A stretch of DNA of 64,000 nt from Leptospiria bacterium (GCA_965261485.1 CBDHCY010000005.1:1228901-1292900); one strand, 5' to 3'. Counted from the first letter of the stretch, positions 6,876 to 39,561 are shown. Notes: a model not told the origin generated them from the sequence alone. Numbers and translations are program-made.

Positions 6876-6900
6876 TTTTATCTTTTTTGATTTATAGTTA

Positions 6901-6934: not shown

Positions 6935-7029
6935 AAGATTTAAATTATTGAAAGTGAATTCGAACAACAAAATATAGTAACTTGCTAAAATAGAATTGAC
7001 AAAACAGCTTTTATGTAAGAAAAAAAGAG

Positions 7030-7329
7030 ATGCCCACTGTAAAAAAAAGAGTAAAATCAGAGATTGATATTCAAAATCTTGATAGCACACAGATGCTATT
7101 TTATCTCATACAACGAATTGATCAGAAAATAGATCGTATTGATGACAAAATTGATAGTGTCGAAAATAAACTCAGCGACAGAATTGATAATGTCGAAAAT
7201 AAACTCAGCGACAGAATTGATAGTGTCGAAAATAAACTCAGCGATCGAATTGATAATAATTTCAAATGGTTGGTCGGTATTATAATTACTGGTTTTCTCA
7301 CGATGTTAGGCAGTTTCTTTTTGAAATAA
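7030..7329 (+). CDS. Bdr-like coiled-coil membrane-anchored protein, copy 2 (3 repeats)
   Basis: 99 aa with the same N- and C-termini as copy 1 and three ID[SN]VENKLSDR units. Confidence 0.8.
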   Translation: MPTVKKRVKSEIDIQNLDSTQMLFYLIQRIDQKIDRIDDKIDSVENKLSDRIDNVENKLSDRIDSVENKLSDRIDNNFKWLVGIIITGFLTMLGSFFLK

Positions 7330-7483
7330 TTTTATCTTTTTGGGTTTATAGTTAAATTACTTATAGAAATATAATGATATAAGTAAGTAAGATTTAAATT
7401 ATTGAAAGTGAATTCGAACAACAAAATATAGTAACTTGCTAAAATAGAATTGACAAAACAACTTTTATGTAAGAAAAAAAGAG

Positions 7484-7804
7484 ATGCCCACTGTAGAAAA
7501 AAGAGTAAAATCAGAGATTGATATTCAAAATCTTGATAGCACACAGATGCTATTTTATCTCATACAACGAATTGATCAGAAAATAGATCGTATTGATGAC
7601 AAAATTGATAGTGTCGAAAATAAACTCAGCGATCGAATTGATAGTGTCGAAAGCAAACTTAGCGATCGAATTGATAGTGTCGAAAATAAACTCAGCGACC
7701 GCATAGAGAAACTAGAGAAAAAGGTTGATAATAATTTCAAATGGTTGGTCGGTATTATAATTACTGGTTTTCTCACGATGTTAGGCAGTTTCTTTTTGAA
7801 ATAA
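7484..7804 (+). CDS. Bdr-like coiled-coil membrane-anchored protein, copy 3 (3 repeats plus EKLEKKV module)
   Basis: 106 aa with three 11-aa units followed by an extra 7-aa EKLEKKV segment before the NNFKW anchor. Confidence 0.8.
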   Translation: MPTVEKRVKSEIDIQNLDSTQMLFYLIQRIDQKIDRIDDKIDSVENKLSDRIDSVESKLSDRIDSVENKLSDRIEKLEKKVDNNFKWLVGIIITGFLTMLGSFFLK

Positions 7805-7958
7805 TTTTATCTTTTTGGGTTTATAGTTAAATTACTTATAGAAATATAATTATATAAGTAAGTAAGATTTAAATTATTGAAAGTAGATTTGAACAATAAA
7901 ATACAGTAACTTTTTAAAATAGAATTGACAAAACAGCTTTTATGTAAGAAAAGAAGAG

Positions 7959-8324
7959 ATGCCCACTGTAGAAAAAAGAGTAAAATCAGAGATTGATATT
8001 CAAAATCTTGATAGCACACAGATGCTATTTTATCTCATACAACGAATTGATCAGAAAATAGATCGTATTGATGACAAAATTGATAGTGTCGAAAATAAAC
8101 TCAGCGATCGAATTGATAGTGTCGAAAGCAAACTTAGCGATCGAATTGATAGTGTCGAAAATAAACTCAGCGATCGAATTGATAGTGTCGAAAATAAACT
8201 CAGCGATCGAATTGATAGTGTCGAAAATAAACTCAGCGATCGAATTGATAATAATTTCAAATGGTTGGTCGGTATTATAATTACTGGTTTTCTCACGATG
8301 TTAGGCAGTTTTTTCTTGAAATAA
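7959..8324 (+). CDS. Bdr-like coiled-coil membrane-anchored protein, copy 4 (5 repeats)
   Basis: 121 aa with five IDSVE[NS]KLSDR units and the same termini. Confidence 0.8.
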   Translation: MPTVEKRVKSEIDIQNLDSTQMLFYLIQRIDQKIDRIDDKIDSVENKLSDRIDSVESKLSDRIDSVENKLSDRIDSVENKLSDRIDSVENKLSDRIDNNFKWLVGIIITGFLTMLGSFFLK

Positions 8325-8478
8325 TTTCATCTTTTTGGGTTTATAGTTAAATTACTTATAGAAATATAATTATATAAGTAAGTAAGATTTAAATTATTGA
8401 AAGTAAATTTGAATAACAAAATATAGTAACTTTCTAAAATAGAATTGACAAAACAGCTTTTATGTAAGAAAAGAAGAG

Positions 8479-8877
8479 ATGCCCACTGTAGAAAAAAGAG
8501 TAAAATCAGAGATTGATATTCAAAATCTTGATAGCACACAGATGCTATTTTATCTCATACAACGAATTGATCAAAAAATAGATCGTATTGATGACAAAAT
8601 TGATAGTGTCGAAAATAAACTCAGCGACAGAATTGATAATGTCGAAAATAAACTCAGCGATCGAATTGATAGTGTCGAAAGCAAACTTAGCGATCGAATT
8701 GATAGTGTCGAAAATAAACTCAGCGATCGAATTGATAGTGTCGAAAATAAACTCAGCGATCAAATTGATAGTGTCGAAAATAAACTCAGCGATCGAATTG
8801 ATAATAATTTCAAATGGTTGGTCGGTATTATAATTACTGGTTTTCTCACGATGTTAGGCAGTTTTTTCTTGAAATAA
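8479..8877 (+). CDS. Bdr-like coiled-coil membrane-anchored protein, copy 5 (6 repeats)
   Basis: 132 aa with six 11-aa units (one ends in Q: KLSDQ) and the same termini. Confidence 0.8.
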   Translation: MPTVEKRVKSEIDIQNLDSTQMLFYLIQRIDQKIDRIDDKIDSVENKLSDRIDNVENKLSDRIDSVESKLSDRIDSVENKLSDRIDSVENKLSDQIDSVENKLSDRIDNNFKWLVGIIITGFLTMLGSFFLK

Positions 8878-9031
8878 TTTCATCTTTTTTGATTTATAGT
8901 TAAATTACTTATAGAAATATAATTATATAAGTAAGTAAGATTTAAATTATTGAAAGTAAATTTGAATAACAAAATATAGTAACTTTCTAAAATAGAATTG
9001 ACAAAACAGCTTTTATGTAAGAAAAGAAGAG

Positions 9032-9319
9032 ATGCCCACTGTAGAAAAAAGAGTAAAATCAGAGATTGATATTCAAAATCTTGATAGCACACAGATGCTA
9101 TTTTATCTCATACAACGAATTGATCAAAAAATAGATCGTATTGATGACAAAATTGATAGTGTCGAAAATAAACTCAGCGACAGAATTGATAATGTCGAAA
9201 ATAAACTCAGCGACAGAACAGAAAAACTAGAGAAAAAGGTTGATAATAATTTCAAATGGTTGGTCGGTATTATAATTACTGGTTTTCTCACGATGTTAGG
9301 CAGTTTTTTCTTGAAATAA
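9032..9319 (+). CDS. Bdr-like coiled-coil membrane-anchored protein, copy 6 (2 repeats plus EKLEKKV module)
   Basis: 95 aa with two 11-aa units, then TEKLEKKV, and the same termini. Confidence 0.8.
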   Translation: MPTVEKRVKSEIDIQNLDSTQMLFYLIQRIDQKIDRIDDKIDSVENKLSDRIDNVENKLSDRTEKLEKKVDNNFKWLVGIIITGFLTMLGSFFLK

Positions 9320-9473
9320 TTTTATCTTTTTGGGTTTATAGTTAAATTACTTATAGAAATATAATTATATAAGTAAGTAAGATTTAAATTATTGAAAGTA
9401 AATTTGAACAATAAAATACAGTAACTTTTTAAAATAGAATTGACAAAACAGCTTTTATGTAAGAAAAGAAGAG

Positions 9474-9806
9474 ATGCCCACTGTAGAAAAAAGAGTAAAA
9501 TCAGAGATTGATATTCAAAATCTTGATAGCACACAGATGCTATTTTATCTCATACAACGAATTGATCAGAAAATAGATCGTATTGATGACAAAATTGATA
9601 GTGTCGAAAATAAACTCAGCGACAGAATTGATAATGTCGAAAATAAACTCAGCGATCGAATTGATGATGTCGAAAATAAACTCAGCGATCGAATTGATAG
9701 TGTCGAAAATAAACTCAGCGATCGAATTGATAATAATTTCAAATGGTTGGTCGGTATTATAATTACTGGTTTTCTCACAATGTTAGGCAGTTTCTTTTTG
9801 AAATAA
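9474..9806 (+). CDS. Bdr-like coiled-coil membrane-anchored protein, copy 7 (4 repeats)
   Basis: 110 aa with four 11-aa units (IDSV, IDNV, IDDV, IDSV) and the same termini. Confidence 0.8.
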   Translation: MPTVEKRVKSEIDIQNLDSTQMLFYLIQRIDQKIDRIDDKIDSVENKLSDRIDNVENKLSDRIDDVENKLSDRIDSVENKLSDRIDNNFKWLVGIIITGFLTMLGSFFLK

Positions 9807-15050: not shown

Positions 15051-15235
15051 ATATTTTAAACTCCAAATTTTTTTTACACATCACATACCATCCAGATATC
15101 AATAACCTTAGGTAAGATTTTTAAGATAGCCAGACTAACTTCTGGTTACTTAATTTAGCACAAATATCCCGACAAGTAAAATAAATGATTTATACATATT
15201 TAAAATATTTAGATCGTCTCAAGAAAGTTTTCCCT

Positions 15236-16988
15236 TCCACCCTTCGCTCAGAAATCAAAGCATCACTCGTGACTATCGGTCAGAGCACCCTCCAATCGCC
15301 ATCGCGATTGGCGATCGTCACTCTTCGCTCAGCGAGCAAGGCATCACTCGCTACTATCGGTCGCCACTCTTCGCTCAGAGATCAAAGCATCACTCGCGAT
15401 TGTCCGTCGACCTCCGCCCAGCGATCAAAGCATCACTCGCGATTGGCGGTCGGCCGTTTATCGTTGCCCTTCGAGCGAAGCATCACTCGTGACTATCGGT
15501 CAGAGCACCCTCCAATCGCCATCGCGATTGGCGATCGTCACTCTTCGCTCAGCGAGCAAGGCATCACTCGCTACTATCAGTCGCCACTCTTCGCACAACA
15601 AAGTATCACTAGCGATTATCGATCGGCACTCTTCGTACAACAAAGCATCACTCGCGACTTGTCGATCGTCACTCTCCGCTCAGAGATCAAAGCATCACTC
15701 GCGACTATCGGCGTTTTCTTCGCTCAGCGAGTAAAGCATCACTCGCGACTTGTCGATCGGCGTTTTCTTCGCTCAGCGAGTAAAGCATCACTCGCGACTT
15801 GTCGATCGGCGTGCCCTTCGCTCAGAGATCAAAGCATCACTCGTGACTGTCGGTTGGCTCTCTTCGCTCAGAGATCAAAGCATCACTCGCGACTGGCGGT
15901 CGTCACTCTTCGCTCAGAGATCAAAGCATCACTCGCGACTATCGGCGTTTTCTTCGCTCAGCGAGTAAAGCATCACTCGCGACTTGTCGATCGGCGTGCC
16001 CTTCGCTCAGAGATCAAAGCATCACTCGTGACTGTCGGTTGGCTCTCTTCGCTCAGAGATCAAAGCATCACTCGTGACTAGCGATCGTCACTCTTCGCTC
16101 AGCGAGTAAGCATCACTCGAGACTGTCGGTCGTCACCCTTCGCACAACAAAGCATCACTCGCGACTGTCGATCGTCACTCTTCGCACAACAAAGCATCAC
16201 TCGCGGCTTGTCGATCGCCACTCTTCGCCTTGCGAGCGAAGCATCATCCACAATTATCGATCGCCACTCTCCGCACAACAAAGCATCACTCGTGACTGGC
16301 GGTCGTCACTCTTCGCTCAGAGATCAAAGCATCACTCGCGATTGGCGATCGTCACTCTTCGCTCAGCGAGCAAGGCATCACTCGCTACTATCGGTCGCCA
16401 CTCTTCGCTCAGAGATCAAAGCATCACTCGCGATTGTCCGTCGACCTCCGCCCAGCGATCAAAGCATCACTCGCGATTGGCGGTCGGCCGTTTATCGTTG
16501 CCCTTCGAGCGAAGCATCACTCGAGACTATCGGTCGCCACCCTTCGCACAACAAAGTATCACTAGCGATTATCGATCGGCACTCTTCGTACAACAAAGCA
16601 TCACTCGCTACTATCGGTCGCCACTCTTCGCTCAGAGATCAAAGCATCACTCGCGATTGTCCGTCGACCTCCGCCCAGCGATCAAAGCATCACTCGCGAT
16701 TGGCGATCGTCACTCTTCGCTCAGCGAACAAAGCATCACTCGCGACTGTCGGTCGTCACTCTTCGCCCAGCGATCAAAGCATCACTCGTGACTGGCGGTT
16801 GACACTCTTTGTCTGCGAGTGCATCACTCGCGACTGTCGATCGTTTATCGTTGCCCGGAGAGCGAAGCATCACTCGTGACTGTCGATCGTCACCCTTCGC
16901 CCAGAGATCAAAGTATCACTCGCGATTATCGGTCGGCGTGCCCTTCGCCTAGCGAGCGAATCGCCATTCGTGACTGGCGGTCGACCGT
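15236..16988. repeat. GC/CpG-rich co-oriented tandem array of degenerate 42-47-bp units (about 37 units by eye), abutting the stop codon of the lipoprotein gene at 16989
   Basis: The core GCATCACTCG[CT]GA recurs every 42-47 bp (for example at 15261, 15341, 15387, 15430 ... 16867, 16913). Consensus unit: aaagcatcactcgcgactgtcggtcgtcactcttcgctcagagatc. The array has higher-order duplications (15302-15490 matches 16336-16524, and 15261-15360 matches 15481-15580). GC content contrasts sharply with the AT-rich surroundings. Confidence 0.95.
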
Positions 16989-18965
16989 TTATCGTTGCCC
17001 GGGGAGCAGAGTATCGTATGACGCACATACGCCGTTTGTTATTGGGCTGACACATCTTTTGATCGCAGGCAGCTGCTTGGCAGTGCCTAGGTCCCAAGCA
17101 CTACCTAAACCATCGGGGTGCATGCCAGTTATGCTCTTTAGCTGGGCCAGCGTAAGGCCCGTCGCATTTACACTACTCCCAGAATTTACACTACTCCCGG
17201 AACCCTGTGCCTTCTTATTCTCAAGCGTTCGTTCGGTGACATTCACACTTTGGGGTGCGTCGGTGTTCCAATAACTATCTGTTATCGTCATAATAAAAGA
17301 AGAAGCAAAAGGAGAAGCGCCCAGCAGACCACCTGAATTAGAAACAGCAATAGCAATACTACTAAAAGAAGAGATTTTACCAGAACCACTAAAATAACTA
17401 TTAGTTATTACTAAAGATTTCTCAGAATAACCCACCAGACCACCTGAAGTAGAACCAGCACTAGTATTATTAGAAGAAGAAAATATTTCACCAGAGCCAT
17501 TAAAATAACTATTCACTATCGTCAAAGAAGCAGAAGACTGGCCCACCAGACCGCCTGAAGTAGAATGCAAAACATTGGCATAAGAAGATATATCACCAGA
17601 ACCACTAACATAACTATTCATTATTACTAAAGAATTCTTAGAATAACCCACCAGACCGCCTGAGCCAAAAGACTTAAAAGTATTGGTAAGCTTGTTAGAG
17701 TAAGAAGAAACCCCAGCAGAACCACTAAAAATACTATTTATAATTACTAAACCAGTATCAGTTGAGGCGAAAACTTCACCCACCAAACCGCCTGATCGAG
17801 ACTGTTCAGAAGAACTAAAGACCCCACCTGAGCCACTGAAAGTGCATTCGCTTATTGTCAGAGAACCAGAAACACGACCAACCAAACCACCCACAGAATT
17901 AAAAGTAGTAACCAGAGCAGCATTAGCATAGATCGAGCCAGAGATGATCTCCACATTGCGAATCATTCCTCCATCTACCTGACCAAATAAACCGACAGCT
18001 ACAAGACTTGAATGCACCCAAAGATTGGCGATCGTATGATTATTTCCATCAAAAGTGCCAGTGAAGCTAGCAATAGTAGAGCCAATGGGTTCCAAAGAGG
18101 TGTCTATACTGGTGTCAATCACAGTTATCCGCTCGCCTGCATCGTCTTCATCACCGTCGGCATTTTTATCGATGCTCACCTCTGTTGTATCGATCACCCC
18201 ATTAGGTGTACCGTTCTTTCCACCGCCTGTATCAAGCAAGCTCAAAAGGTCAATGTTGGCTGTTAGCTCGTAGCCGTTGCAACTTCCTGAGGAGCAACCG
18301 CTTGAATTATTAGGTCCACCATTCTTCACACTTCTATAACTTGTGCCCGCCAAATTATGACGCATGTTATTGAGCATCTCAGCGGTATATATTTCAATTA
18401 AGCCATCACCATCATGATCAGCCTTAGAGCCTCCACCAGAGATCTCAACACCCGAAGCATAATTAAAGCTCATGTCATAAGCGAAAAGCTTATAAAAATA
18501 ATGGGTTGAAGCTGTAGCCTCGGAATCGATGAATGTAGTTTCGCTTGAGTTATACACCACCACACTTGAGGCACCAATTGACACGCCACTCGCATAATCT
18601 TGCCCTGTCGTGGGGGCATCTGATATGCTGCTTTCACTTCTCAAGATTAAAACCTTAGAAAAATCATCATCGCTAGGCTCGCTCCAAGTTAGAGTGATGC
18701 TAGTGCTATCTAAACTTGAGAAGCCACCACTTATAACGTTCTTTGGTGATGTTTTATCTTCTTCAGACCTAACACCCGGTCCTGGCATATCAGGTGCATC
18801 AGGTGCATCAGGTGAAACAGGTGGAACATTGTTGGGATTTTCTTTAGAACAAGACGCACCAAAAACGATACAAAATAATAAAAAACTAGCGACCACAGCC
18901 ATTAAACCACCTTTGATCACGCGAGCCACATAAAGTCTCATCCAATATTGTACATTTTCACACAT
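16989..18965 (-). CDS. Surface lipoprotein with FN3-like domain, Ca-binding DxDGDG motif and 6 GLUG-type (GGLVG) repeats (paralog L1)
   Basis: The ORF runs to 18998. I prefer the ATG at 18965 because GAGGAGG lies 6 nt upstream. Lipobox-type signal ...LLFCIVFGASC, FN3-like ITLTWSEPSDDDFSKVLILRS...YFYKLFAYD, then DHDGDGLIEIYTAEMLNNM. Six modules of GGLVGxSxxSLxIxNSYFSGSGxxSS follow, with the conserved C-terminus SYWNTDAPQSV...CASYDTLLPGQR. Confidence 0.85.
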   Translation of the reverse strand: MCENVQYWMRLYVARVIKGGLMAVVASFLLFCIVFGASCSKENPNNVPPVSPDAPDAPDMPGPGVRSEEDKTSPKNVISGGFSSLDSTSITLTWSEPSDDDFSKVLILRSESSISDAPTTGQDYASGVSIGASSVVVYNSSETTFIDSEATASTHYFYKLFAYDMSFNYASGVEISGGGSKADHDGDGLIEIYTAEMLNNMRHNLAGTSYRSVKNGGPNNSSGCSSGSCNGYELTANIDLLSLLDTGGGKNGTPNGVIDTTEVSIDKNADGDEDDAGERITVIDTSIDTSLEPIGSTIASFTGTFDGNNHTIANLWVHSSLVAVGLFGQVDGGMIRNVEIISGSIYANAALVTTFNSVGGLVGRVSGSLTISECTFSGSGGVFSSSEQSRSGGLVGEVFASTDTGLVIINSIFSGSAGVSSYSNKLTNTFKSFGSGGLVGYSKNSLVIMNSYVSGSGDISSYANVLHSTSGGLVGQSSASLTIVNSYFNGSGEIFSSSNNTSAGSTSGGLVGYSEKSLVITNSYFSGSGKISSFSSIAIAVSNSGGLLGASPFASSFIMTITDSYWNTDAPQSVNVTERTLENKKAQGSGSSVNSGSSVNATGLTLAQLKSITGMHPDGLGSAWDLGTAKQLPAIKRCVSPITNGVCASYDTLLPGQR

Positions 18966-19059
18966 AAAACGCCTCCTCAGACATTGACCGCATTTCACTA
19001 TGCCGATCTTGCAAATAAATTAAGTTAGAATCGCCTTCAATCTTGATGGGTGCTTCAAC

Positions 19060-19122
19060 ACCACGAAAAAAATAAAATAAAAGGCCAAAGATTTCAGCAA
19101 AAGCCACGACTTTTGCTGAAAT
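19060..19122 (-). terminator. Rho-independent-type terminator hairpin between the microsatellite and the L1 gene
   Basis: Perfect 13-bp inverted repeat atttcagcaaaag (19091-19103) / cttttgctgaaat (19110-19122) with a 6-nt loop. On the minus strand it is followed by ctttggccttttattttattttttt. Confidence 0.55.
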
Positions 19123-19232
19123 AACATGCATGATAATTAGGGCTAACGCCCCGCTTCTAAAATTTTTGAGAAAAATGCCGCGAAGGCACGACCTATTTTT
19201 TTTAGAGAATAAACTAAGACCTAAGTCTAGTG

Positions 19233-19386
19233 TCTGTAGTTCTGTAGTTCTGTAGTTCTGTAGTTCTGTAGTTCTGTAGTTCTGTAGTTCTGTAGTTCTG
19301 TAGTTCTGTAGTTCTGTAGTTCTGTAGTTCTGTAGTTCTGTAGTTCTGTAGTTCTGTAGTTCTGTAGTTCTGTAGTTCTGTAGTTC
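19233..19386. repeat. Perfect octanucleotide microsatellite (tctgtagt / actacaga), about 19 copies
   Basis: Uninterrupted tctgtagt repeats run from 19233 to about 19386. They lie between the stop of the Rpn gene (19563) and the terminator hairpin upstream of L1. Confidence 0.97.
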
Positions 19387-19562
19387 ATTCATTTTTCCAA
19401 GCCCCACACAGAGACAGCCTCAGTCAACAATGCCTGCACATGTTGTCAACGTTTTTTTATTTTTTATGTAAAATTGATGTCGCAACTTCGCACATGACGT
19501 GTGAAAAAAGCGGGTAAAAAAAGAGACTATTTTCTGCTAATCACAAACGATGCCAGATCCGC

Positions 19563-20564
19563 CTATGGTCGTAAATGCTCAATCTCTTCTATAGAAAGAC
19601 CGGTGCTTCTTGAGATCACTTTAATAGAGAAACCCTCTTTCAAGAGACTTTGAGCTACTTCAGCCTTGCCCTTAGCCACGCCCTTAGTCATGCCCTTAGT
19701 CATGCCCTCGGTTATGCCCTCGGTTATGCCTTCGGCTCTGCCCTTAGTCATGCCCTTAGTCATGCCCTCAGTTATGCCCTTAGCTATTAGCTCGTCTGCA
19801 ATGGATCTCATATCCCCTCCTGCCTTTGGTGAAATGTATTGCCCAGCACTCTTTACAATAAAATCAATAGTAAACCCGCCAGTGCTAGTAATAATATAGT
19901 TCAATAAAACATCAAGCATTTTCTTATTTTCTTGAGAGATTCGTGCATAATAATCTTTGAAAAGATCTTCTAAGCGTGACCTGCTCGATAAAAACCAAAT
20001 ATCCTGTAGACTTTTTAAAAATGCCTGTACAGCCACAGAGAAATCGGTGAACTCTGTTTTATCTGAGCGAAGATCAAGTAATTCATAGTGAAAGTCTGGT
20101 ATGTATTTTTGTAAAGACTTTCTCAGATGCTCAGGAATCACTAAAGAACTGCTGAAGAGCGTGGGAATATCCCACTCTTTTTTTCCGTGATAAAGCACTA
20201 AAGGAATCACGGGCATTGTGCTCGTTTTATAAATTCCAGCTAAATACATGAGAAGCTGTGAATGAATATTTTTTTCTTTATACGATTTATGTTCTATCAG
20301 ACAAAAAACGCCCAGCCTTTTTGATTCCAAAGATTTCGCAGATTCTGAATCTGATTGCTTTTTGATAGGTACGCTGTAGAGAATATCAGTGAATCGTTCT
20401 TGATCTGTTGCATCAATAAAGCACCCTTTCTCTATTTGTAATTTTATAAAGTCTAGCTCTGATGTGATCTCTTTAGGCAGAGCATTTTTAAGAAAATCTA
20501 CCGCATAAGTTTTTTGTGATAAAACTTGTTTGGTTATGATGTCGTGTTGGTTTAGCTTTGCCAT
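19563..20564 (-). CDS. Rpn/YhgA-like recombination-promoting nuclease (PD-(D/E)XK putative transposase family)
   Basis: 333 aa. The N-terminus (HDIITKQVLSQKTYAVDFLKNALP ... RFTDILYSV ... FCLIEHKSYKEK...QLLMYL) matches the Rpn/YhgA-like nuclease core. The C-terminus has 5-aa repeats (GITEG/GMTKG, 15-bp units, about 19672-19790) and a helix-rich tail (AQSLLKEGFSIKVISRSTGLSIEEIEHL) typical of the family. Confidence 0.8.
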   Translation of the reverse strand: MAKLNQHDIITKQVLSQKTYAVDFLKNALPKEITSELDFIKLQIEKGCFIDATDQERFTDILYSVPIKKQSDSESAKSLESKRLGVFCLIEHKSYKEKNIHSQLLMYLAGIYKTSTMPVIPLVLYHGKKEWDIPTLFSSSLVIPEHLRKSLQKYIPDFHYELLDLRSDKTEFTDFSVAVQAFLKSLQDIWFLSSRSRLEDLFKDYYARISQENKKMLDVLLNYIITSTGGFTIDFIVKSAGQYISPKAGGDMRSIADELIAKGITEGMTKGMTKGRAEGITEGITEGMTKGMTKGVAKGKAEVAQSLLKEGFSIKVISRSTGLSIEEIEHLRP

Positions 20565-20687
20565 AAGATGTTCATCTTATAATTGATAGACAAAGCAAAA
20601 ACCATTAAAAAATACTTTTGAAAGCGTCAATGGGGATTCAAGCTCTAAAGTTTGGGCAGGGCAGAATATTACTTACTCCCGACCTGC

Positions 20688-21785
20688 GAACAAAGCATCA
20701 CTCGCGACTGTCGGTCGTCACTCTCCGCACAACAAAGCATCACTCGCGATTATCGATCGTCACTCTTCGCCCAGCGATCAAAGCATCACTCGTGACTGGC
20801 GGTTGACACTCTTTGTCTGCGAGTGCATCACTCGCGACTATCGGCGTTCCCTTCGCCCAGAGATCAAAGCATCACTCGCGATTATCGATCGTCACTCTTC
20901 GCCCAACGATCAAAGCATCACTCGTGACTGTCGGGTCGTCACTCTCCGCACAACAAAGCATCACTCACAACTGTCGGTCGTCGTGCCCTTCGCTCAGAGA
21001 TCAAAGCATCACTCGCTACTTGTCGATCGACACCCTTCGCACAACAAAGCATCACTCGCGATTGTCCGTCGACCTCCGCCCAGCGATCAAAGCATCACTC
21101 GCGATTGGCGATCGTCACTCTTCGCTCAGAGAGCGAAGCATCACTCGCGATTGGCGATCGTCGACTCTCCGCCCAGCGATCAAAGCATCACTCGCGATTG
21201 GCGATCGTCGACTCTCCGCCCAGCGATCAAAGCATCACTCGCGATTGGCGATCGTCGACTCTCCGCCCAGCGATCAAAGCATCACTCGCGATTGTCCGTC
21301 GACCTCCGCCCAGCGATCAAAGCATCACTCGCGATTATCGGTCGTCACTCTCCGCACAACAAAGCATCACTCGCGACTATCGGCGTTCCCTTCGCCCAGA
21401 GAGCGAAGCATCACTCGCGACTGTCGGGTCGCCACTCTTCGCCCAGAGATCAAAGCATCACTCGTGACTGTCGGGTCGTCACTCTCCGCACAACAAAGCA
21501 TCACTCACAACTGTCGGTCGTCGTGCCCTTCGCTCAGAGATCAAAGCATCACTCGCTACTTGTCGATCGACACCCTTCGCACAACAAAGCATCACTCGCT
21601 ACTGTCGATCGTCACTCTTCGCACAACAAAGCATCACTCGCGACTGTCGATCGTCACTCTTCGCACAACAAAGCATCACTCGTGACTGGCGGTCGCCACT
21701 CTTCGCCCAGCGATCAAAGCATCACTCGCGATTATTCGGTCGGCGTGCCCTTCGCTCTGCGAGTGCATCACTCGCGACTGTCCGT
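20688..21785. repeat. Second GC/CpG-rich co-oriented array of the same 42-47-bp unit family (about 25 units by eye), abutting the stop codon of the lipoprotein gene at 21786
   Basis: The same GCATCACTCG[CT]GA core recurs at 20694, 20737, 20782 ... 21719, 21765. There is an internal duplication (20914-21060 matches 21454-21600) and a shared segment with array 1 (20782-20838 matches 16779-16835). Orientation relative to the adjacent gene is the same as in array 1. Confidence 0.95.
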
Positions 21786-23687
21786 TTATCGTTGCCCGGG
21801 GAGCAGAGTATCGTATGACGCACATACGCCGTTTGTTATTGGCCTGACACATCTTTTGATCGCAGGTAATTGCATATCGGTGCCTAGGTCCCAAGCACTA
21901 CCTAAACCATCGGGGTGCATGCCAGTTATGTTTTTTAGCTGGGCCAGCGTAAGAGCCCCATCCATACCCACAGCATTACCTCGTGCCTTCTTATCTTGGA
22001 GCGTTCGTTCGGCGACATTCACACTTTGGGGTGCGTCGGTGTTCCAATAACTATCTGTTATCGTTATAGAAGCAGCAAAACCATTTCCTATCAAACCACC
22101 TGAATTAGAACCAGCAATAGCAATACTAAAAGAAGAGATTTTACCAGAACCACTAAAATAACTATTAGTTATTGGCAAAGTACCTTCAGAAGAACCCACC
22201 AGACCACCTGAAGAAGAATTAGCAAGCCCATGATTAGAATAAGAAAAGATTTCACCAGAGCCATTAAAATAACTATTCATTATTGTCAAAGAAGCCTTAG
22301 AATAACCCACCAGACCACCTGAAGCAGAATGCAAAGCCTTGGTATAAGAAGATATATCACCAGAACCACTAACATAACTATTCATTATTACTAAAGACTT
22401 CCCAGAATAACCCACCAGACCGCCTGAGCCATAAGAGTCAGCAGTATTGGTAGGCTTGCTAGAGTAAGAAGAAACCCCAGCAGAACCACTAAAAATACTA
22501 TTTATAATTACTAAACTAGTACCAATCGAGGCGGAAACTTCACCCACCAAACCGCCTGATCGAGACTGTATAGAAGAACTAAAGACCCCACCTGAGCCAC
22601 TGAAAGTGCATTCGCTTATTGTCAGAGAACCATAAACAAGACCAACCAAACCACCCACAAAATTAAAAGCAGTAGCCAGATCAGCATAAATCGAGCCAGA
22701 GATGATCTCCACATTGCGAATTTGAACAGTTTCACTAGCTCCTCCATCTACCTGACCAAATAAACCGACAGTTGAAAGAGTTGAATGCATCCAAAGATTG
22801 GCGATGGTATGATTATTTCCATCAAAAGTGCCAGTGAAGTTATTAGTAGTAGCAATGGGTATCCAGGAGGTGTCCATACTGATGTCAATCACTGTTATCC
22901 GCTCGCCTGCATCGTCTTTATCACCGTCGGTATTTTTATCGACACTCTCCTCTGTTGTATCGATCTCACCGTTGGGGGCAACATAACCATTCTCACCAAT
23001 TTCACCAATCCCATCAAGCAAGCTCAAAAGGTCAATGTTGGCTGTTAGCTCGTAGCCATGGCAACCTGAGAGGCAACCGCTTGAATTAGGTCTACCATTC
23101 TTCACACTTCTATAACTTGTGCCCGCCAAGTTATGACGCATGTTATTGAGCATCTCAGCCGTATATATTTCAATTAAGCCATCCTCATCATGATCAGCCT
23201 TAGAGCCTCCACCAGAGATCTCAACACCCGAAGCATAATTAAAGCTCATGTCATAAGCGAAAAGCTTATAAAAATAATGGGTTGAAGCTGTAGCCTCGGA
23301 ATCGATGAATGTAGTTTCGCTTGAGTTATACACCACACTTGAGGCACCAATTGACACGCCACTCGCATAATCTTGCCCTGTCGTGGGGGCATCTGATATG
23401 CTGCTTTCACTTCTCAAGATTAAAACCTTAGAAAAATTAGTATCACTAGGCTCGCTCCAAGTTAGAGTGATGCTAGTGCTATCTAAACTTGAGAAGCCAC
23501 CACTTATAACGTTCTTTGGTGATGTTTTATCTTCTTCAGACCTAACACCCGGTCCCGGCATATCAGGTGCATCAGGTGAAACAGGCGGAACATTGTTGGG
23601 ATTTTCTTTAGAACAAGACGCACCAAAAACGATACAAAATAATATCAGAGCTTGAGCGATCTTGCAGAGTAATTTTATTATATTCAT
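21786..23687 (-). CDS. Surface lipoprotein with FN3-like domain, DxDxDG motif and 6 GLUG-type repeats (paralog L2)
   Basis: The ORF extends to a TTG at 23723. I prefer the ATG at 23687 (MNIIKLLCKIAQALILFCIVFGASC). The N-terminal roughly 170 aa are almost identical to L1. The centre is diverged and the C-terminus is ...CASYDTLLPGQR. Confidence 0.85.
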   Translation of the reverse strand: MNIIKLLCKIAQALILFCIVFGASCSKENPNNVPPVSPDAPDMPGPGVRSEEDKTSPKNVISGGFSSLDSTSITLTWSEPSDTNFSKVLILRSESSISDAPTTGQDYASGVSIGASSVVYNSSETTFIDSEATASTHYFYKLFAYDMSFNYASGVEISGGGSKADHDEDGLIEIYTAEMLNNMRHNLAGTSYRSVKNGRPNSSGCLSGCHGYELTANIDLLSLLDGIGEIGENGYVAPNGEIDTTEESVDKNTDGDKDDAGERITVIDISMDTSWIPIATTNNFTGTFDGNNHTIANLWMHSTLSTVGLFGQVDGGASETVQIRNVEIISGSIYADLATAFNFVGGLVGLVYGSLTISECTFSGSGGVFSSSIQSRSGGLVGEVSASIGTSLVIINSIFSGSAGVSSYSSKPTNTADSYGSGGLVGYSGKSLVIMNSYVSGSGDISSYTKALHSASGGLVGYSKASLTIMNSYFNGSGEIFSYSNHGLANSSSGGLVGSSEGTLPITNSYFSGSGKISSFSIAIAGSNSGGLIGNGFAASITITDSYWNTDAPQSVNVAERTLQDKKARGNAVGMDGALTLAQLKNITGMHPDGLGSAWDLGTDMQLPAIKRCVRPITNGVCASYDTLLPGQR

Positions 23688-26076: not shown

Positions 26077-26961
26077 ATGAATAGACCTTCTGTCGTGCTT
26101 CCTGAAGTTGAAGTCAACACTTTTCGTAAAAAAACACCACTTGAAGCTGAGGTTATCAAAAATCAAAGACTTTTTAACAATCAAGATAATGAAAACGATG
26201 CTCGTCATATTGTTTTTTCTGCTCCTAAAATAAATTATTGGGAAGGGCAAAGTATCGGTGTTTTGGTTCCCGGACTCAATGCAAAAAATAAAGCTCATGC
26301 TGTGCGGCTTTATTCAATCGCTTCTGTTGGAAATAATATGACCGTTAAAAATAAAGATCATCTTGATATCTGTGTAAAGCGTGTAACTTATATCGATAAA
26401 TTAACTGGTGAACAAAAATATGGAGTGGCTTCCAATTATTTATGTGACCTCAAAGTTGGTGATCGTGTTCAACTAACAGGCCCAGCGGGAAGAACATTTC
26501 TATTACCCATAAAAGAAGAGATCAACCGACCTTATTTATTTTTTGCAACAGGTACGGGTATCGCCCCTTTTCGAGGTATGTTACATCGACTTTTTAAGTC
26601 AGATCATCCGCTTCAACAAGATGTTTATCTTTTTTTTGGTGCAAAAAAAGAAAATGAGCTAATCTATCATGAAGAACTCAAAGCCTATACTTCGTTTTCA
26701 AATTTTTATTATCGAACTGCCTGCAGTCGAGAACAAACGACCCAGCATGGTGAAAAACTTTATGTTTATCACCTTATCGAAGCTGAGAAAAATAATATTT
26801 CTCAGCTCTTAAATAACCCAAAGGCCCTTATTTATTTATGCGGGCTTAAGGGTATGGAAAAAGGCATCTTTGAAAAATTAGCAGAAACTTTAGATCTGAC
26901 TGCAACTTCACCAGAGTTTGAAAATTTAATCTCTGAGAAAGTCTTTATGGAAGTCTATTAA
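26077..26961 (+). CDS. Ferredoxin--NADP+ reductase, plant (plastidic) type
   Basis: 294 aa with the FAD-binding RLYSIAS motif, the NADP motif GTGIAPFRG, CGLKGME, and a terminal aromatic residue (...FMEVY-stop) characteristic of plant-type FNR. Confidence 0.9.
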   Translation: MNRPSVVLPEVEVNTFRKKTPLEAEVIKNQRLFNNQDNENDARHIVFSAPKINYWEGQSIGVLVPGLNAKNKAHAVRLYSIASVGNNMTVKNKDHLDICVKRVTYIDKLTGEQKYGVASNYLCDLKVGDRVQLTGPAGRTFLLPIKEEINRPYLFFATGTGIAPFRGMLHRLFKSDHPLQQDVYLFFGAKKENELIYHEELKAYTSFSNFYYRTACSREQTTQHGEKLYVYHLIEAEKNNISQLLNNPKALIYLCGLKGMEKGIFEKLAETLDLTATSPEFENLISEKVFMEVY

Positions 26962-31405: not shown

Positions 31406-33952
31406 CTATCTTTGCCCGGGGAGTAGGGCACCGTATGACGCACACGTCCTCCAATCAGTGACACCATTCGTTGTAATTGTGGGAATACACAACTTAACCG
31501 CGGGTAATTGCATGTTGCTGCCTAGGTCCCAAGCTTTTGTGTTATCAGCAGCACTATGTGAGAGACCACCGTCGGGATCGGTGTTACTTATGGCTTGTAG
31601 TTGCACTAGCGTAAGACCTGTTATACCTGATGGGTCAACTACATCCGCGGCATTACCCAATGCCCGATCGGCGACGAGCGTTTGTCCAGAGATACTTTGA
31701 GGTGCATCGGTATTCCAGTAAGACCTCATGACTGTCAAAGAAGAAAGAATTCGCCCCACCAAACCGCCAGAATAAGAAAAAGGATCTACGAAAGAAGATA
31801 CACCACTAGAACCACTAAAATAACTATTCACTATTATTGAAGAAGCTCCCAAATAACCCACCAGACCACCAGAATAAGAAGGAGCAGCAGCAGAAGAAGA
31901 AGAGACTTCACCAGAACCACTAAAATAACTATTCACTATTCTTGAATCACCAGCAGAATAACCCACCAGACCACCAGAAGCAGAATAAGAAGCAGCAGAA
32001 GAAGAAGAAGAAGAAACTCCACCAGAACCACTAAAATAACTATTCACTATTTTTGAAGCACTCGCAGAAAAACCCAGCAGACCACCTGAATAAGCATAAG
32101 AAGAAGAAGAAGAGGAGACTCCACCAGAACCACTAAAATAACTATTCACTATTATTGGAGCACTAGCAGAAGAACCCACCAGACCACCGGCAATAGTAGA
32201 AGGAGTAGTAGAAGGGGAGGAAGAGAAGGAAGATACACCACCCAATCCACTAAAATAGCTGCTAATCATCGTCAAAGAAGAAAGAGTTCGCCCCACCAAA
32301 CCGCCAGAAGAGGAAGCATAAGAAGAAGAAGAAGAAGAGACTCCACCAGAACCACTAAAATAACTATTAGTTATTGTCAAAGAAGAAGTGTTGGAAAGTC
32401 CCACTAGACCACCTGAATAAGAAAAAGAAAAAGAAGAAGAAGAGACTCCACCAGAACCACTAAAATAACATTTGATTATCCTCAAAACACCTTCAGAAGA
32501 ACCCACCAGACCACCTAAAGAAGAAGCAGCAAAAGAAGAAGAAGAGACGACTCCACCAGAACCACTAAAATAACTATTTATTATCGTCAAATCATCTTCA
32601 GAAGAACCCACCAGACCACCGGCAATAGTAGAAAGAGTAGTAGAAATAGAAGAAGCAAATACTGATCCTGAAATGATTCCCACATTGTGAATCTCTACAG
32701 ACCCTTTGACAAAACCAAATAAACCCGCATAAACATCACTTGTGGAAGAATCAATATTCACCCAAAGATTCCCAATGGTATGGTTGTTACCCTCGAAAAT
32801 GCTAGTAAATGGAGCAGATGCATCGCCAATAGGCACCCAGCTTGTGTCTTTGCCCGTGTCCGTATTAATCACCTTCACCTTCTCACCTGCATCATCAGTG
32901 TTTCCGTTGGCATTTTTATCAATGCCCTTCGGCGTCGTATCGATTTTTCCATTTCTGTTTGCATCAAGCAAACTCAAAAGATCAATATGGGCTGTTAACT
33001 CATAGCCATTGCAAACGTTGTTTGGACAACCATCAACATTACCTCTTGCTTGTTCTGCTGCCGAGCTTTTATAACTTGCACCTGCCAAATCATGACGCAT
33101 GTTATCGAGCATTTCAGCAGTATATATCTCAATCAAGCCATCACCATCATGATCGGCCTTAAAGCCTCCGCCAGAAATTTCAATACCTGAAGCATAATTA
33201 AAACTCGAATCATAAGCAAATAGCTTATAATAATAATGGGTTGAGGCTACTCTAGCCCCTGCCTCGGAATCTTTAAATGTAGTTGTATTTGAGTTATACA
33301 CCATGATTGAGCTACCAATTGAATTAGAATTTGCATAATCTTGCCCTGTTGTTGGAACATATGATATTGAATTTTCACTCCTTAAAATCAAAATTTTATA
33401 AAAATTAGCACCGATAGGGTTGCTCCAAGCTAGAGTTATGCCCTCATTATCTAAATTTAAAAACCTACTATTTATGACATTTTTGGGTGATGTGGGTGAT
33501 ATGGTACCTCCTTCAAATTCAACGCCCGAAGCATAATTAAAGCTACTGTCATAAGCAAAAATCTTATAAAAATAAGTGGCACCTTCTGTAATTTTCATGT
33601 CTGTAAAAGTTGACATCTCTGCGTGATGCACCACTTTTGAGCCACCAATCAAATCAACATTTACATAGCTTTTCCCTACCTCAGGAGTATCTGATATTGA
33701 GCTTTCACTCCTTAAAATTAAAACCTGAGAAAAATCAACATCGGTAGGGTTGCTCCAGCTTAACATTATTTCGTTTGAATTACGCCGAAAAACAAAATTT
33801 GTGATATTGCCTGGTGGGTTCTCATCTAAGATTATTGGTAATCTATCATTTGGTAGATCACTCAGATCTTTTTTAACACAAAACGCACTAAAGATGATGC
33901 AAACTAAGACTAAACCTCGGGTAACCTTAAACAATGATTTAACTACACTCAT
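31406..33952 (-). CDS. Surface lipoprotein with two FN3-like domains, DHDGDG motif and 9 GLUG-type repeats with Ser tracts (paralog L3)
   Basis: 848 aa. Signal MSVVKSLFKVTRGLVLVCIIFSAFC, two copies of the [IM]LSWSNPTD/ITLAWSNPI...YFYK[IL]FAYDSSFNYASG module, and nine GGL[VL]G modules. The C-terminus is ...CASYGALLPGQR. Confidence 0.85.
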   Translation of the reverse strand: MSVVKSLFKVTRGLVLVCIIFSAFCVKKDLSDLPNDRLPIILDENPPGNITNFVFRRNSNEIMLSWSNPTDVDFSQVLILRSESSISDTPEVGKSYVNVDLIGGSKVVHHAEMSTFTDMKITEGATYFYKIFAYDSSFNYASGVEFEGGTISPTSPKNVINSRFLNLDNEGITLAWSNPIGANFYKILILRSENSISYVPTTGQDYANSNSIGSSIMVYNSNTTTFKDSEAGARVASTHYYYKLFAYDSSFNYASGIEISGGGFKADHDGDGLIEIYTAEMLDNMRHDLAGASYKSSAAEQARGNVDGCPNNVCNGYELTAHIDLLSLLDANRNGKIDTTPKGIDKNANGNTDDAGEKVKVINTDTGKDTSWVPIGDASAPFTSIFEGNNHTIGNLWVNIDSSTSDVYAGLFGFVKGSVEIHNVGIISGSVFASSISTTLSTIAGGLVGSSEDDLTIINSYFSGSGGVVSSSSFAASSLGGLVGSSEGVLRIIKCYFSGSGGVSSSSFSFSYSGGLVGLSNTSSLTITNSYFSGSGGVSSSSSSYASSSGGLVGRTLSSLTMISSYFSGLGGVSSFSSSPSTTPSTIAGGLVGSSASAPIIVNSYFSGSGGVSSSSSSYAYSGGLLGFSASASKIVNSYFSGSGGVSSSSSSAASYSASGGLVGYSAGDSRIVNSYFSGSGEVSSSSAAAPSYSGGLVGYLGASSIIVNSYFSGSSGVSSFVDPFSYSGGLVGRILSSLTVMRSYWNTDAPQSISGQTLVADRALGNAADVVDPSGITGLTLVQLQAISNTDPDGGLSHSAADNTKAWDLGSNMQLPAVKLCIPTITTNGVTDWRTCASYGALLPGQR

Positions 33953-34001
33953 TCAAACATCTCTATCTATTATAAAATATACCTCAACTCTTCACGGAAG
34001 A

Positions 34002-34030
34002 TTATCTCATGGAAGATATATTTTGTCAAA
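34002..34030 (-). promoter_or_regulatory. Sigma-70-like promoter candidate for L3 (TTGACA-N17-GATAAT)
   Basis: On the minus strand, ttgaca (34030-34025), a 17-nt spacer, then gataat (34007-34002), about 50 nt upstream of the L3 ATG at 33952. Confidence 0.45.
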
Positions 34031-34104
34031 TATAAAAATAATAAAGTTGATCAAAAAAAATATTTTTTCATGGCAGAATATCTACCCAAAATCTCAGTTC
34101 AGCC

Positions 34105-36676
34105 CTATCTTTGCCCGGGGAGTAGGGCACCGTATGACGCACACATCGCCCAATCAGTGACACCATTCGTTCTAATTGTAGGAATACACAACTTAACCGC
34201 GGGTAATTGCGTGTTGCTGCCTAGGTCCCAAGCTTTTATGTTATCAGCAGCACTATGTGAGAGACCACCGTCGGGATCGGTGTTACTTATGGCTTGTAGT
34301 TGAACTAGCGTAAGACCCGTCGTACCTACTACCTCCACAGTACCTGATTCACCCACCAAAGCAGCTGAGTTGCTACTCTCAACATCACCCTGCGCCCGTT
34401 TTGGGTCTTGATTAGTGCCGCCAACACTTTGAGGTGCGTCGGTGTTCCAGTAAGACCTCATGACCATCAAAGGAAAAGGAGTTCGCCCCACCAAACCACC
34501 AAAATAAGAATTAGAAGGATCTATAGACAAAGATACACCACCAGAACCACTAAAATAACTATTAGTTATTGTCAAAGCATCTCCAGAATAACCTACCAGA
34601 CCACCTGAAGTAGAAGAAGAAGTAGAAGAAGAAGTAGAAGAAGAGACTCCACCCGCACCGCTAAAATAACTATTAACTATTTCTGAAGCACCAGCAGAAG
34701 AACCCACCAGACCACCTGAAGAAGAAGTAGAAGAAGAAGAAGAAGAAACCCCAGCAGAACCACTAAAATAACTATTAACTATCGTCAAAAAACTATCAGA
34801 AGAACCCACCAGACCGCCTGAATAAGAAGAAGAAGGAGAAGAAGAAGTAGAAGAAGAGACTCCACCCGCACCGCTAAAATAACTATTAACTATTATTGAA
34901 ACACTAGCAGAAGAACCCACCAGACCGCCTGAATAAGAAAAAGGAGAAGAGGAAGAAAAAACCCCAGCAGAACCACTAAAATAACTATTAATTATCGTCA
35001 AATCATCTCCAGTATAACCCACCAGACCACCTGAATAAGAAAGAGAAGAAGAAGAAGAAGAAGAGACTCCACCCGAACCACTAAAATAACTATCAACTAT
35101 CGTCAAAAAACTATCAGAAGAACCCACCAGACCGCCTGAATAAGAAGAAGAAGAAGAAGAAGAAGAGACTCCACCCATACCGCTAAAATAACATTTGATT
35201 ATCCTCAAAACACCTTCAGAAGAACCCACCAGACCACCTAAATAAGAAGCAGCAAAAGAAGAAGAAGAGACGACTCCACCAGAACCACTAAAATAACTAT
35301 TTATTATCGTCAAATCATCTTCAGAATAACCCACCAGACCACCGGCAATAGTAGAAGGAGTAGGAAATAGAAGAAGCAAATACTGATCCTGAAATGATTC
35401 CCACATTGTGAATCTCTACAGACCCTTTGACAAAACCAAATAAACCCGCATAAACATCACTTGTGGAAGAATCAATATTCACCCAAAGATTCGCTATGGT
35501 ATGGTTGTTACCCTCAAAAATGCTAGTAAATGGAGCAGATGCATCGCCAATGGGCACCCAGCTTGTGTCTTTGCCCGTGTCCGTATTAATCACCTTCACC
35601 TTCTCACCTGCATCATCAGTGTTTCCGTTGGCATTTTTATCAATGCCCTTCGGCGTCGTATCGATTTTTCCATTTCTGTTTGCATCAAGCAAACTCAAAA
35701 GATCAATATGGGCTGTTAGCTCATAGCCATTGCAAACGTTGTTTGGACAACCATCAACATTACCTCTTGCTTGTTCTGCTGTCGAGCTTTTATAACTTGC
35801 ACCTGCCAAATCATGACGCATGTTATCGAGCATTTCAGCAGTATATATCTCAATCAAGCCATCACCATCATGATCGGCCTCAGAGCCTCCGCCAGAAATT
35901 TCAATACCTGAAGCATAATTAAAATTCGAATCATAAGCAAATAGCTTATAATAATAATGGGTTGAAACTACTGTAGCTCCCCTATCTTTAAATGTAGTTG
36001 CATTTGAGTTATACACCATGGTTAAGCTACCAATTGAATTAAAATTCGCATAATCTTGCCCTCTTGTTGGAACATATGATATTGAATTTTCACTCCTTAA
36101 AATTAAAATTTTATAAAAATTAGCATCGATAGGGTTGCTCCAAGCTAGAGTTATGCCCTCATTATTTAAATTTAAAAACCTACTATTTATGACATTTTTG
36201 GGTGATATGGGTGATATGGGTGATATGGTACTTCCTTCAAATTCAACGCCCGAAGCGTAATTAAAGCTACTGTCGTAAGCAAAAATCTTATAAAAATAAG
36301 TGGCACCTTCTGTAATTTTTATGTCTGTAAAAGTTGATATCTCTGCGTGATACATCACTTTTGAACCACCAATCAAATCAACATTTACATAGCTTTTCCC
36401 TACCTCAGGAGTATCTGATATTGAGCTTTCACTCTTTAAAATTAAAACCTGAGAAAAATCAACATCAGTAGGGTTGCTCCAGCTTAATATTATTTCGTTT
36501 GAATTACGCCGAAAAACAAAATTTGTGATATTGCCTGGTGGGTTCTCATCTAAGATTATTGGTAATCTATCATTTGGTAGATTACCCAGATCTTTTTTAA
36601 CACAAGACGCACTAAAAATGATGCAAACTAAGACTAAACCTCGGGTAACCTTAAACAATGATTTAACTACACTCAT
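34105..36676 (-). pseudogene. GLUG-repeat lipoprotein paralog L4, split by a 2-bp deletion (frameshift)
   Basis: Two overlapping ORFs, 35321..36676 (N-terminal 451 aa) and 34105..35406 (C-terminal part with 9 GLUG modules), together align end to end with L3. At about 35355-35365 L4 reads ggagtaggaaat, where L3 (about 32645-32660) reads agagtagtagaaat. The frame shifts from ...ASSISTTLSTIAGGLVG to ...ASSISYSFYYCRWSGGLF-stop. Confidence 0.8.
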
Positions 36677-36724
36677 TCAAACATCTCTATCTATTATAAA
36701 ATATACTCCAACTCTTCACGGAAG

Positions 36725-36828: not shown

Positions 36829-39561
<2,733 letters not shown>

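Follow-up and report, generated by a model that had tools for sequence, protein, structure and literature searches.

A lineage-restricted, GC-rich tandem repeat array behind a lipoprotein gene of a Leptospiria bacterium and its possible role in gene cassette recombination

Organization of the locus

In a 64,000-nucleotide stretch of the genome of a Leptospiria bacterium (GCA_965261485.1, CBDHCY010000005.1:1228901-1292900; hereafter the window, in which all positions are counted unless another sequence is named), a long array of short tandem repeats, referred to as array 2, is found between the lipoprotein gene L2 and rpn, a nuclease gene of the Rpn/Transposase_31 type. On the minus strand the order is L2 (23723 to 21786), array 2, a 124-bp non-repeat spacer and rpn (20564 to 19563), all co-directional, and the stop codon of L2 is the first triplet of the array region. 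Array 1, which consists of the same family of units, adjoins the stop codon of the L2 paralogue L1; no rpn is found downstream of array 1, where unrelated genes lie instead. The lipoprotein genes of this family are collectively called L genes. The main features are as follows.

Array 2: 20679..21812, no strand assigned; 25 tandem units of 42-48 bp with the plus-strand consensus GCATCACTCGYGAYTRKCGRTCGNCACTCTYCGCNCAGMGANCAAA, the last unit overlapping the L2 stop codon
L2: 21786..23723, minus strand; lipoprotein gene with a GLUG motif and SGGLVG-type repeats
rpn: 19563..20564, minus strand; Rpn/Transposase_31 nuclease gene downstream of array 2, on the same strand as L2
Array 1: 15238..17008, no strand assigned; ~35 units of the family and orientation of array 2
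L1: 16989..18998, minus strand; paralogue of L2 with ~80% amino-acid identity
Three identical consecutive 47-bp units: 21138..21278, no strand assigned; units start at 21138, 21185 and 21232
183-bp (4-unit) block, copy 1: 20889..21071, no strand assigned; repeat family D4, 96% identical to copy 2
183-bp (4-unit) block, copy 2: 21429..21611, no strand assigned; 540 bp from copy 1

A preliminary description of array 2, made from the sequence of the window, had proposed about 25 units of the array 1 family in the same orientation relative to their gene, and this is confirmed by a profile hidden Markov model (HMM) of the unit and by 25 GCATCAC core anchors (20695-21765), which split the region 20695-21814 into head-to-tail units. 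Tandem Repeats Finder reports 20686-21731 with a period of 47, 23.5 copies and 78% matches, while the unit HMM places the limits at ~20679-21812, with a terminal unit that spans the L2 stop codon (21786-21788) and ~25 nt of L2 coding sequence. The three 47-bp units that had been called near-identical are in fact identical, and the duplication 540 bp apart, given before as 147 bp, is slightly longer at 183 nt. Both the identical triplet and the 4-unit block duplication bear out the recent expansion suggested previously, and the triplet marks a recent local expansion of array 2.

The 10-mer GCATCACTCG at the core of the unit occurs 55 times in the window, always on the plus strand and always within arrays 1 and 2, where dinucleotide shuffles lead one to expect 0.05 occurrences. 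The GC content of array 2 is 0.52-0.58 (~55%), compared with ~0.33-0.45 in its flanks and roughly 34% in the genome. An excess of C over G on the plus strand, also part of the preliminary description, holds as well: C makes up 35.2% and G 20.9% of the bases, and the GC skew of the plus strand is -0.20 to -0.27 along the array and weaker in the flanks. Array 2 has all the properties by which a variable number tandem repeat (VNTR) locus is recognized, that is, head-to-tail direct repeats, unit differences between strains and a lack of coding function. No inverted-repeat pairs were found in 20600-21850, which separates it from palindromic elements of the repetitive extragenic palindrome or bacterial interspersed mosaic element type.

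An array of clustered regularly interspaced short palindromic repeats was considered and rejected, as the whole unit repeats and its variable columns are dimorphic and common to several arrays, leaving no unique spacers.

Related arrays in other sequences

Homologous arrays were recovered via contigs that encode L homologues or translated arrays, all of which belong to one ENA assembly (ERZ26693861). With those of the window, eight arrays from four sequence sources are available: arrays 1 and 2 of the window, arrays a, b and c of L117, arrays a and b of L130, and the array of L131. Each of the eight begins at the stop codon of an L gene (a lipoprotein gene with the GLUG motif), and all are from one lineage. 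L117 is the orthologous locus, with flanks that are 92% identical over 11.6 kb and with the gene order NadE, an L2 homologue, a 1.04-kb array of 22.7 copies, rpn, and then two more cassettes that each consist of an L gene, an array and rpn. Array length differs between strains, as the idea of an expanding array implied, with ~23 units in the L117 ortholog versus 25 in array 2. L130 is a different locus, in which LepA is followed by an L gene, ~10 units, an inserted 88-codon gene, ~6 units and an SBF paralogue; no rpn is found behind its arrays, and the downstream genes are unrelated. L131 comes from a strain with 99.2% identity, in which it is located a few kb upstream of the position where the window starts. 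Its array, cut off by the end of the contig, comprises at least 41 units; the L gene of this array is only 45-53% identical to L1/L2 in amino-acid sequence, and the unit consensus is nevertheless the same.

Beyond this lineage, a scan of metagenomes for pairs of neighboring cores (24 specified bases) returned 10 hits, all of them unrelated tandem repeats that share just the 12-mer, and a genome-collection scan with a 15-mer core, a pattern that is too short, returned only single chance matches in unrelated taxa (loci L001-L116, regarded as noise). A literature search on the core sequence returned primer coincidences only. The array family is rare and lineage-specific.

An array is found in front of all four rpn copies whose upstream DNA was read, and the flank of a fifth array (P0124), in translation, also matches the spacer on the rpn side. 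Among four sampled Rpn loci on Leptospira and Arsenophonus plasmids, a small sample, none has an upstream non-coding array, just 12-bp intragenic repeats; the nearest plasmid-borne Rpn homologues are those of Leptospira, with ~31% identity. As array 1 and the L130 arrays lack rpn and the plasmid Rpn loci lack an array, the consistent link of the arrays is with the L gene rather than with rpn.

This distribution also bears on whether the array belongs to a type III toxin-antitoxin-like system, in which a sense (minus-strand) repeat RNA upstream of rpn would be processed into units that neutralize Rpn. Known type III antitoxin arrays hold 2-6 copies; ToxI, reportedly described by Fineran and colleagues in 2009, is said to consist of ~5.5 repeats of 36 nt with a terminator behind them and to be paired with a ToxN-type RNase. 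The arrays described here resemble ToxI in that short direct repeats are found immediately upstream of, and co-directional with, the gene of a nuclease whose family is toxic (PMC10400941), and the array in front of every rpn copy read upstream, together with the P0124 flank, fits such an arrangement. Yet they hold 25-41 copies, no minus-strand terminator was found between array 2 and rpn, and Rpn belongs to the PD-(D/E)XK DNases and has a protein antitoxin encoded within its own gene (PMC10400941), unlike a ToxN-type RNase. Array 1 and the L130 arrays without a downstream rpn, as well as the four plasmid loci without an upstream array, also argue against this explanation, which is very improbable.

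Two minor observations concern the arrays outside the window. The 88-codon gene in the middle of the L130 array (L130 12429-12695) is a member of a small KID-repeat family and matches window 8479-8877 with a BLASTP E = 1e-10, and CAATGCTTTGAAAGCAT flanks the array piece distal to this gene, once on its L-gene-proximal side and once on its distal side. In addition, short stretches of 7-bp repeats, (CAATTGA/CAATTGT)n, separate the L stop codon from the first unit, and one such stretch is located within an array (L117 ~8592-8625 and ~9300-9330; L131 1909-1935); they are absent from the arrays of the window.

Conservation and turnover of the units

Across 104 distinct units, the first 10 nt, which form the core GCATCACTCG, are 93-100% conserved, and the later columns CG.TCG.C and CGC are conserved at >93%. 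Another 11 columns show strong dimorphism. CGATCG and CGGTCG occur in about equal shares (~50:50), and no palindrome is conserved. Variation differs strongly from column to column (index of dispersion 16, a figure inflated by the shared ancestry of the units).

Such position-specific conservation, with the core and a second half-site, TCACTCYCGC, ~22-25 bp away in a roughly two-helical-turn periodicity, and with the array placed between two co-directional genes, would fit a role of the array as a series of sites to which a sequence-specific protein binds on DNA or RNA; the array might then serve as an insulator, a silencer, a nucleoprotein filament or an RNA sponge that controls L2 and/or rpn. 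We regard this as unlikely. The cassette encodes no candidate binder except the C-terminal helix-turn-helix (HTH) of Rpn, neither a conserved palindrome nor inverted repeats were found, and the genes downstream of array 1 and the L130 arrays are unrelated.

The unit-tail variants ACAACAAA, AGATCAAA, CGATCAAA and AGAGCGAA recur in nearly all arrays, and a few variants are private to a single array. The best match of a unit has an identity of 0.96 when sought in the array to which the unit belongs, 0.90-0.92 when arrays 1 and 2 of the window are compared and 0.85-0.87 to the orthologous array. Alignment of array 2 with its L117 ortholog gives 49-84% identity with unit-sized insertions and deletions, whereas the flanks are 91-92% identical. 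At the place where the window has its identical units, L117 likewise has a run of units, with substitutions of its own present in every copy. Homogenized runs with lineage-specific substitutions at the same position are a signature of concerted evolution.

Exchange between units has also carried pieces of the gene end into array 1. The 14-mer GTTTATCGTTGCCC, which comprises the stop codon and the last codons of the L gene, has 5 matches in the window versus 0.02 expected; only 2 of them are true gene ends (16987 and 21784), and the other three lie within array 1.

L-gene terminus copies inside array 1: 15456..15469, 16490-16503 and 16843-16856; matches to the 14-mer

These three copies indicate that a gene-proximal hybrid unit was propagated inward by unequal exchange. 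Taken together, the comparisons show that units, and likewise arrays, exchange sequence with one another through unequal crossing-over and gene conversion, which makes the array grow, shrink and become homogenized.

The L genes themselves also recombine. In 100-nt windows along the L gene of L130 (10001-11913), some segments are 99-100% identical to L2 and others 99% identical to L1, with 66-87% identity elsewhere, a pattern that shows the L genes to be mosaics and points to segmental gene conversion among paralogues. At the NadE locus, two cassettes are found in the strain of the window versus three cassettes of L gene, array and rpn in the 92%-identical L117, and the paralogue in the second position differs.

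Much of this turnover would also be expected if the arrays were a neutral or selfish minisatellite that evolves by slippage and unequal exchange, plays no role for the L genes and owes its position to cassette duplication. The eight arrays may share a single origin and have been copied along with the cassette; they evolve faster than their flanks (49-84% versus 92% identity); L paralogues without arrays exist; and no structure, coding capacity or known motif was found in the arrays. Against neutrality, the 10-nt core and several other columns are near-invariant across arrays whose genes are only ~48% identical, and the length of the orthologous array has been kept (1.10 versus 1.04 kb) despite heavy unit turnover. 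A purely neutral satellite is a serious rival to the explanation that we favor below, albeit a somewhat unlikely one.

Coding capacity and RNA structure

Over 130 units from the eight arrays, unit lengths are 41-52 bp and not multiples of three, so that any reading frame drifts through all three phases and the array is non-coding. The plus strand of array 2 is nonetheless poor in stop triplets, with 5 versus 12.5 +/- 2.8 in dinucleotide shuffles, and its minus strand has 60 versus 54 +/- 5. The preliminary description had noted a stop-poor plus strand and a stop-rich minus strand in both arrays; the observation holds in array 2, and array 1 has 18 stop triplets on the plus strand versus 27 +/- 4 in shuffles, but the shortage is modest and is not a conserved property. 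In the orthologous array of L117 the plus strand is enriched in stop triplets (34 versus 18 +/- 3 expected), and the L131 array is at expectation (30 versus 28). This reversal in the orthologous array indicates that the shortage follows from the ancestral unit sequence and not from selection; the ancestral unit holds TCA three times, which gives TGA on the opposite strand.

Long plus-strand open reading frames (ORFs) at 20803-22050 and 20813-21685 could in principle encode real proteins, and public gene calls of this kind do exist. A search of 5.8 billion proteins with the translated array, however, returned five matches only (P0121-P0125), all of which are array translations from this lineage, and the long plus-strand ORFs across array 2 have no match to any Pfam family. 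Given also the frame drift and the richness of the orthologous array in stop triplets, this explanation is barely credible, and the gene calls P0121-P0125 are almost certainly spurious and caused by the stop-poor plus strand. The public hypothetical-protein calls across the arrays are at window 20813-21685, 15185-16081 and 16208-16879 (P0121-P0123), with P0124 and P0125 found elsewhere.

The suggestion that the asymmetric composition reflects a structured RNA was not borne out. A 272-nt stretch of the array folds no better than shuffles (z = -0.46 on the minus strand and -0.71 on the plus strand), RNAalifold, run on 104-113 distinct units for either strand and two unit frames, returned an empty consensus structure, and no covariance model of Rfam 15 matches at gathering score anywhere in the window.

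Two candidate motifs were rejected. Most units lack the hairpin at the unit junction (GCGAGT...ACTCGC), which shows neither conservation nor covariation, and clusters of GATC (Dam) sites and CsrA-type GGA motifs both fall on dimorphic columns and so are unconserved.

The promoter-like motif and antisense transcription

A promoter-like sequence divergent from rpn, TTGATA-N17-TAAAAA, had been reported at 20583-20611, and it is indeed present on the plus strand (TTGATA at 20583-20588 and TAAAAA at 20606-20611). The candidate -35 hexamer matches at 5/6 positions and the spacing is 17, but the candidate -10 hexamer, TAAAAA, has no T at position 6. The region holds 2 promoter-like sites, no more than chance predicts (3.5 +/- 1.8 in shuffles). 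The following features were compared.

rpn-upstream block: 20580..20620, 41 bp; invariant but for one C/T position in four paralogous or orthologous copies, contains TTGATA-N17-TAAAAA
Spacer copies compared: window 20565-20690; L117 9662-9727, 13713-13830 and 18162-18293

The spacer between array and rpn exists in a long form of ~124 bp and a short form of ~65 bp, which share the 41-bp block and differ in the 15 nt before the rpn ATG, and between the block and the ATG the sequence varies among the four rpn-upstream copies. The 41-bp block is, judged by this conservation, probably functional. Because it doubles as the 5' region of rpn, where it is the only obvious place for an rpn promoter or leader, its conservation does not favor a plus-strand promoter.

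The preliminary description had inferred from the motif that a promoter divergent from rpn could drive a plus-strand RNA through array 2 and into the antisense of the 3' end of L2, where it might act as a structured or antisense regulator. The presence of the motif within a nearly invariant block is in favor of such a transcript, and so is the C-rich, G-poor and unstructured plus strand of the array. RNA that is C-rich, G-poor and unstructured is, however, the expected substrate of Rho-dependent termination, so that a plus-strand transcript of the array would probably end early. Given in addition the imperfect -10 hexamer, the chance-level frequency of promoter-like sites, the second role of the block as the rpn 5' region, the lack of a stable or conserved fold or of an Rfam family in the searches described above, and the unconserved stop-codon scarcity, we consider a divergent promoter with such an RNA quite improbable, and no support was found for array 2 as a structured or antisense RNA gene. 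Since L2, array 2 and rpn are co-directional on the minus strand, sense transcription that reads through the array is no less plausible than antisense transcription.

Comparison with known repeat systems

Mycobacterial interspersed repetitive units (MIRUs), whose properties are reportedly given by Supply and colleagues in 1997 and 2000, and other VNTRs are similar to the arrays described here in that they are head-to-tail repeats of 40-100 bp between co-directional genes, with a first unit that overlaps the stop codon of the upstream gene. As in MIRUs, copy number and unit order vary between strains, with slippage and unequal exchange. The arrays differ from MIRUs in having 25 to at least 41 copies per locus, compared with usually 1-12, in being GC-rich in an AT-rich genome, and in occurring only behind L paralogues rather than dispersed at unrelated loci, the core being confined to two arrays in 64 kb. 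The small coupling ORFs of MIRUs are also absent; the sense strand has ~3 stop triplets per unit, and the 124-bp non-repeat spacer stands before rpn.

The downstream homology sequence (DHS) of the vmp genes of Borrelia hermsii is a 214-bp extragenic element with a 31-bp inverted repeat required for switching, which is found at a variable distance from the stop codon and serves one expression site and silent archives (PMC6011951). Like the DHS, the arrays are a conserved extragenic element downstream of paralogous surface-lipoprotein genes, and they share its position and its conservation. Gene conversion in the vmp system has been proposed to need the DHS as its crossover point; here the L genes are mosaics and their cassettes vary in number, and crossovers may fall within the arrays. 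The arrays, however, are tandem arrays of 1-2 kb that begin at the stop codon and have no inverted repeat, and no expression-site/silent-copy architecture is evident from the sequence. The DHS therefore appears to be the nearest functional analogue, although the array differs from it in anatomy.

In their mode of action only, the arrays may also be likened to immunoglobulin class-switch regions, which are kb-long arrays of 20-80-bp units beside alternative cassettes that are exchanged by recombination between arrays and which have a G-rich sense (non-template) strand, the skew of the sense strand here being ~+0.25. Class-switch regions are, in contrast, eukaryotic and dependent on activation-induced cytidine deaminase and R-loops; here one G-run is found per unit, and R-loops or targeted breaks would be hypothetical. 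The sopC centromere of plasmid F consists of twelve 43-bp tandem repeats that bind SopB, with an inverted-repeat site in each unit, and is located beside sopAB. The arrays share with it tandem units of ~43-47 bp, each with a conserved core, but have no conserved palindrome, occur several times per chromosome and have no partition genes nearby.

Proposed role of the arrays

Based on these results, we propose, with a probability of roughly 0.55, that array 2 is a lineage-restricted, non-coding and GC-rich minisatellite that is tied to the 3' ends of L genes, is driven by recombination and gives the L cassettes long downstream homology. The arrays would provide each L cassette with 1-2 kb of shared homology directly downstream of the gene. 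With the 5' parts of the genes being near-identical as well, cassettes of L gene, array and rpn could then be duplicated, deleted and partly converted. Unlike an RNA gene, the array would thus act as a downstream homology block in a recombining surface-antigen family, a role that we infer from the distribution and turnover of the arrays. The nearly invariant 10-nt core may be a recombination register or target, or a protein-binding site. Unusual features of this minisatellite are its copy number (25 to at least 41 per array), its GC content of 55% against an AT-rich genomic background, its position directly from the stop codon of recombining L genes onward, and its near-invariant 10-nt core.

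Several points weigh against this proposal. Any long repeat would passively show the same signatures, and recombination that starts in or depends on the arrays is putative. The array-less L paralogues L3, L4 and L6 of the window share the conserved C-terminus, and their existence means that arrays are not needed for an L gene to exist. The uneven column conservation is inflated by the shared ancestry of the units, and the high GC content of the arrays is unexplained. An origin of the unit from the 3' end of the gene also lacks significance: in a 600-nt search, the unit profile aligns to the same 24 nt in all five L termini with non-significant E = 0.14-0.27.

The proposal could be extended to a bacterial analogue of switch regions. 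Rpn or another enzyme that recognizes the core might break the G-rich, transcribed arrays, and repair between arrays might then shuffle, duplicate or delete cassettes of L gene, array and rpn and so drive variation of the surface lipoproteins; this extension is speculative and, in our estimate, improbable. Should the arrays truly be a crossover substrate of these mosaic lipoprotein genes, they would make the locus a compact system in which the repeat-mediated shuffling of antigen cassettes could be tested for an uncultured bacterium, and the recombination-promoting nuclease encoded in the same cassette adds to the value of the locus as a model. Even on an ordinary reading, the public calls P0121-P0125 are to be treated as spurious, and the arrays are hypervariable markers and likely break-points of assemblies, as with the L131 array that reaches the contig end.

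Genes and other repeats of the neighborhood

The rpn gene matches Pfam Transposase_31 with E = 2.8e-33 as well as TIGR01784 (Rpn family), and its product carries the C-terminal HTH considered above. Among the proteins of the cassette, the sole match in PADLOC is a weak one, of rpn to PDLC01084 'putative invertase' (E = 3.6e-06). The gene also contains a short tandem repeat.

12-bp intragenic repeat in rpn: 19667-19783, 9.8 copies; encodes 4-amino-acid repeats GITE/GMTK

Rpn toxins have a hypervariable intragenic repeat of 4 amino acids and intragenic RpnS antitoxins (PMC10400941), and Rpn genes of Leptospira and Arsenophonus likewise show 12-bp intragenic repeats.

The GLUG-motif match of L1 and L2 in Pfam is weak, and a search of solved structures with L2 gave no matches. 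The lipobox at the N-termini of the L proteins is, from a reading by eye, presumably spirochaete-like; with the Leptospira homologues of Rpn and with the Bdr/KID-repeat-like small proteins and the reductase described below, it is a hint, short of proof, at a relative of the spirochaetes. Four further L-family lipoprotein genes are found in tandem on the minus strand at window 31406-42303, with coding repeats of 102-117 bp and long (GAA)n tracts. At least three of these four end in ...CASY..LLPGQR before the stop codon, yet continue into AT-rich DNA without an array.

Upstream of L1, at a distance of 230-390 bp (window 19228-19386), is a perfect 8-bp microsatellite (TAGTTCTG) of 19.8 copies. 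It falls within an ORF of 149 codons (18958-19407) with 'ELQNYRTT' repeats that is probably spurious. The same TAGTTCTG repeat is found upstream of other L genes with differing copy numbers (15 and 10 in L117 and 11.1 in L131), and it is a candidate phase-variation tract.

Another tandem series, at window 6722-9806, consists of units of ~454-475 bp with 33-bp (11-amino-acid 'IDSVENKLSDR') repeats throughout. It includes four ORFs of 106-132 codons (7484-7804, 7959-8324, 8479-8877 and 9474-9806), two of which were tested and have sub-threshold Pfam matches to XhlA and to the Borrelia Bdr KID repeat.

Finally, window 26077-26961 encodes a plastid-type ferredoxin-NADP reductase (FNR), an enzyme type that is unusual in a non-photosynthetic bacterium. 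Its top matches among solved structures are plant and cyanobacterial FNRs, and it has a full-length match to 2rc5, which we take to be the FNR of Leptospira interrogans.

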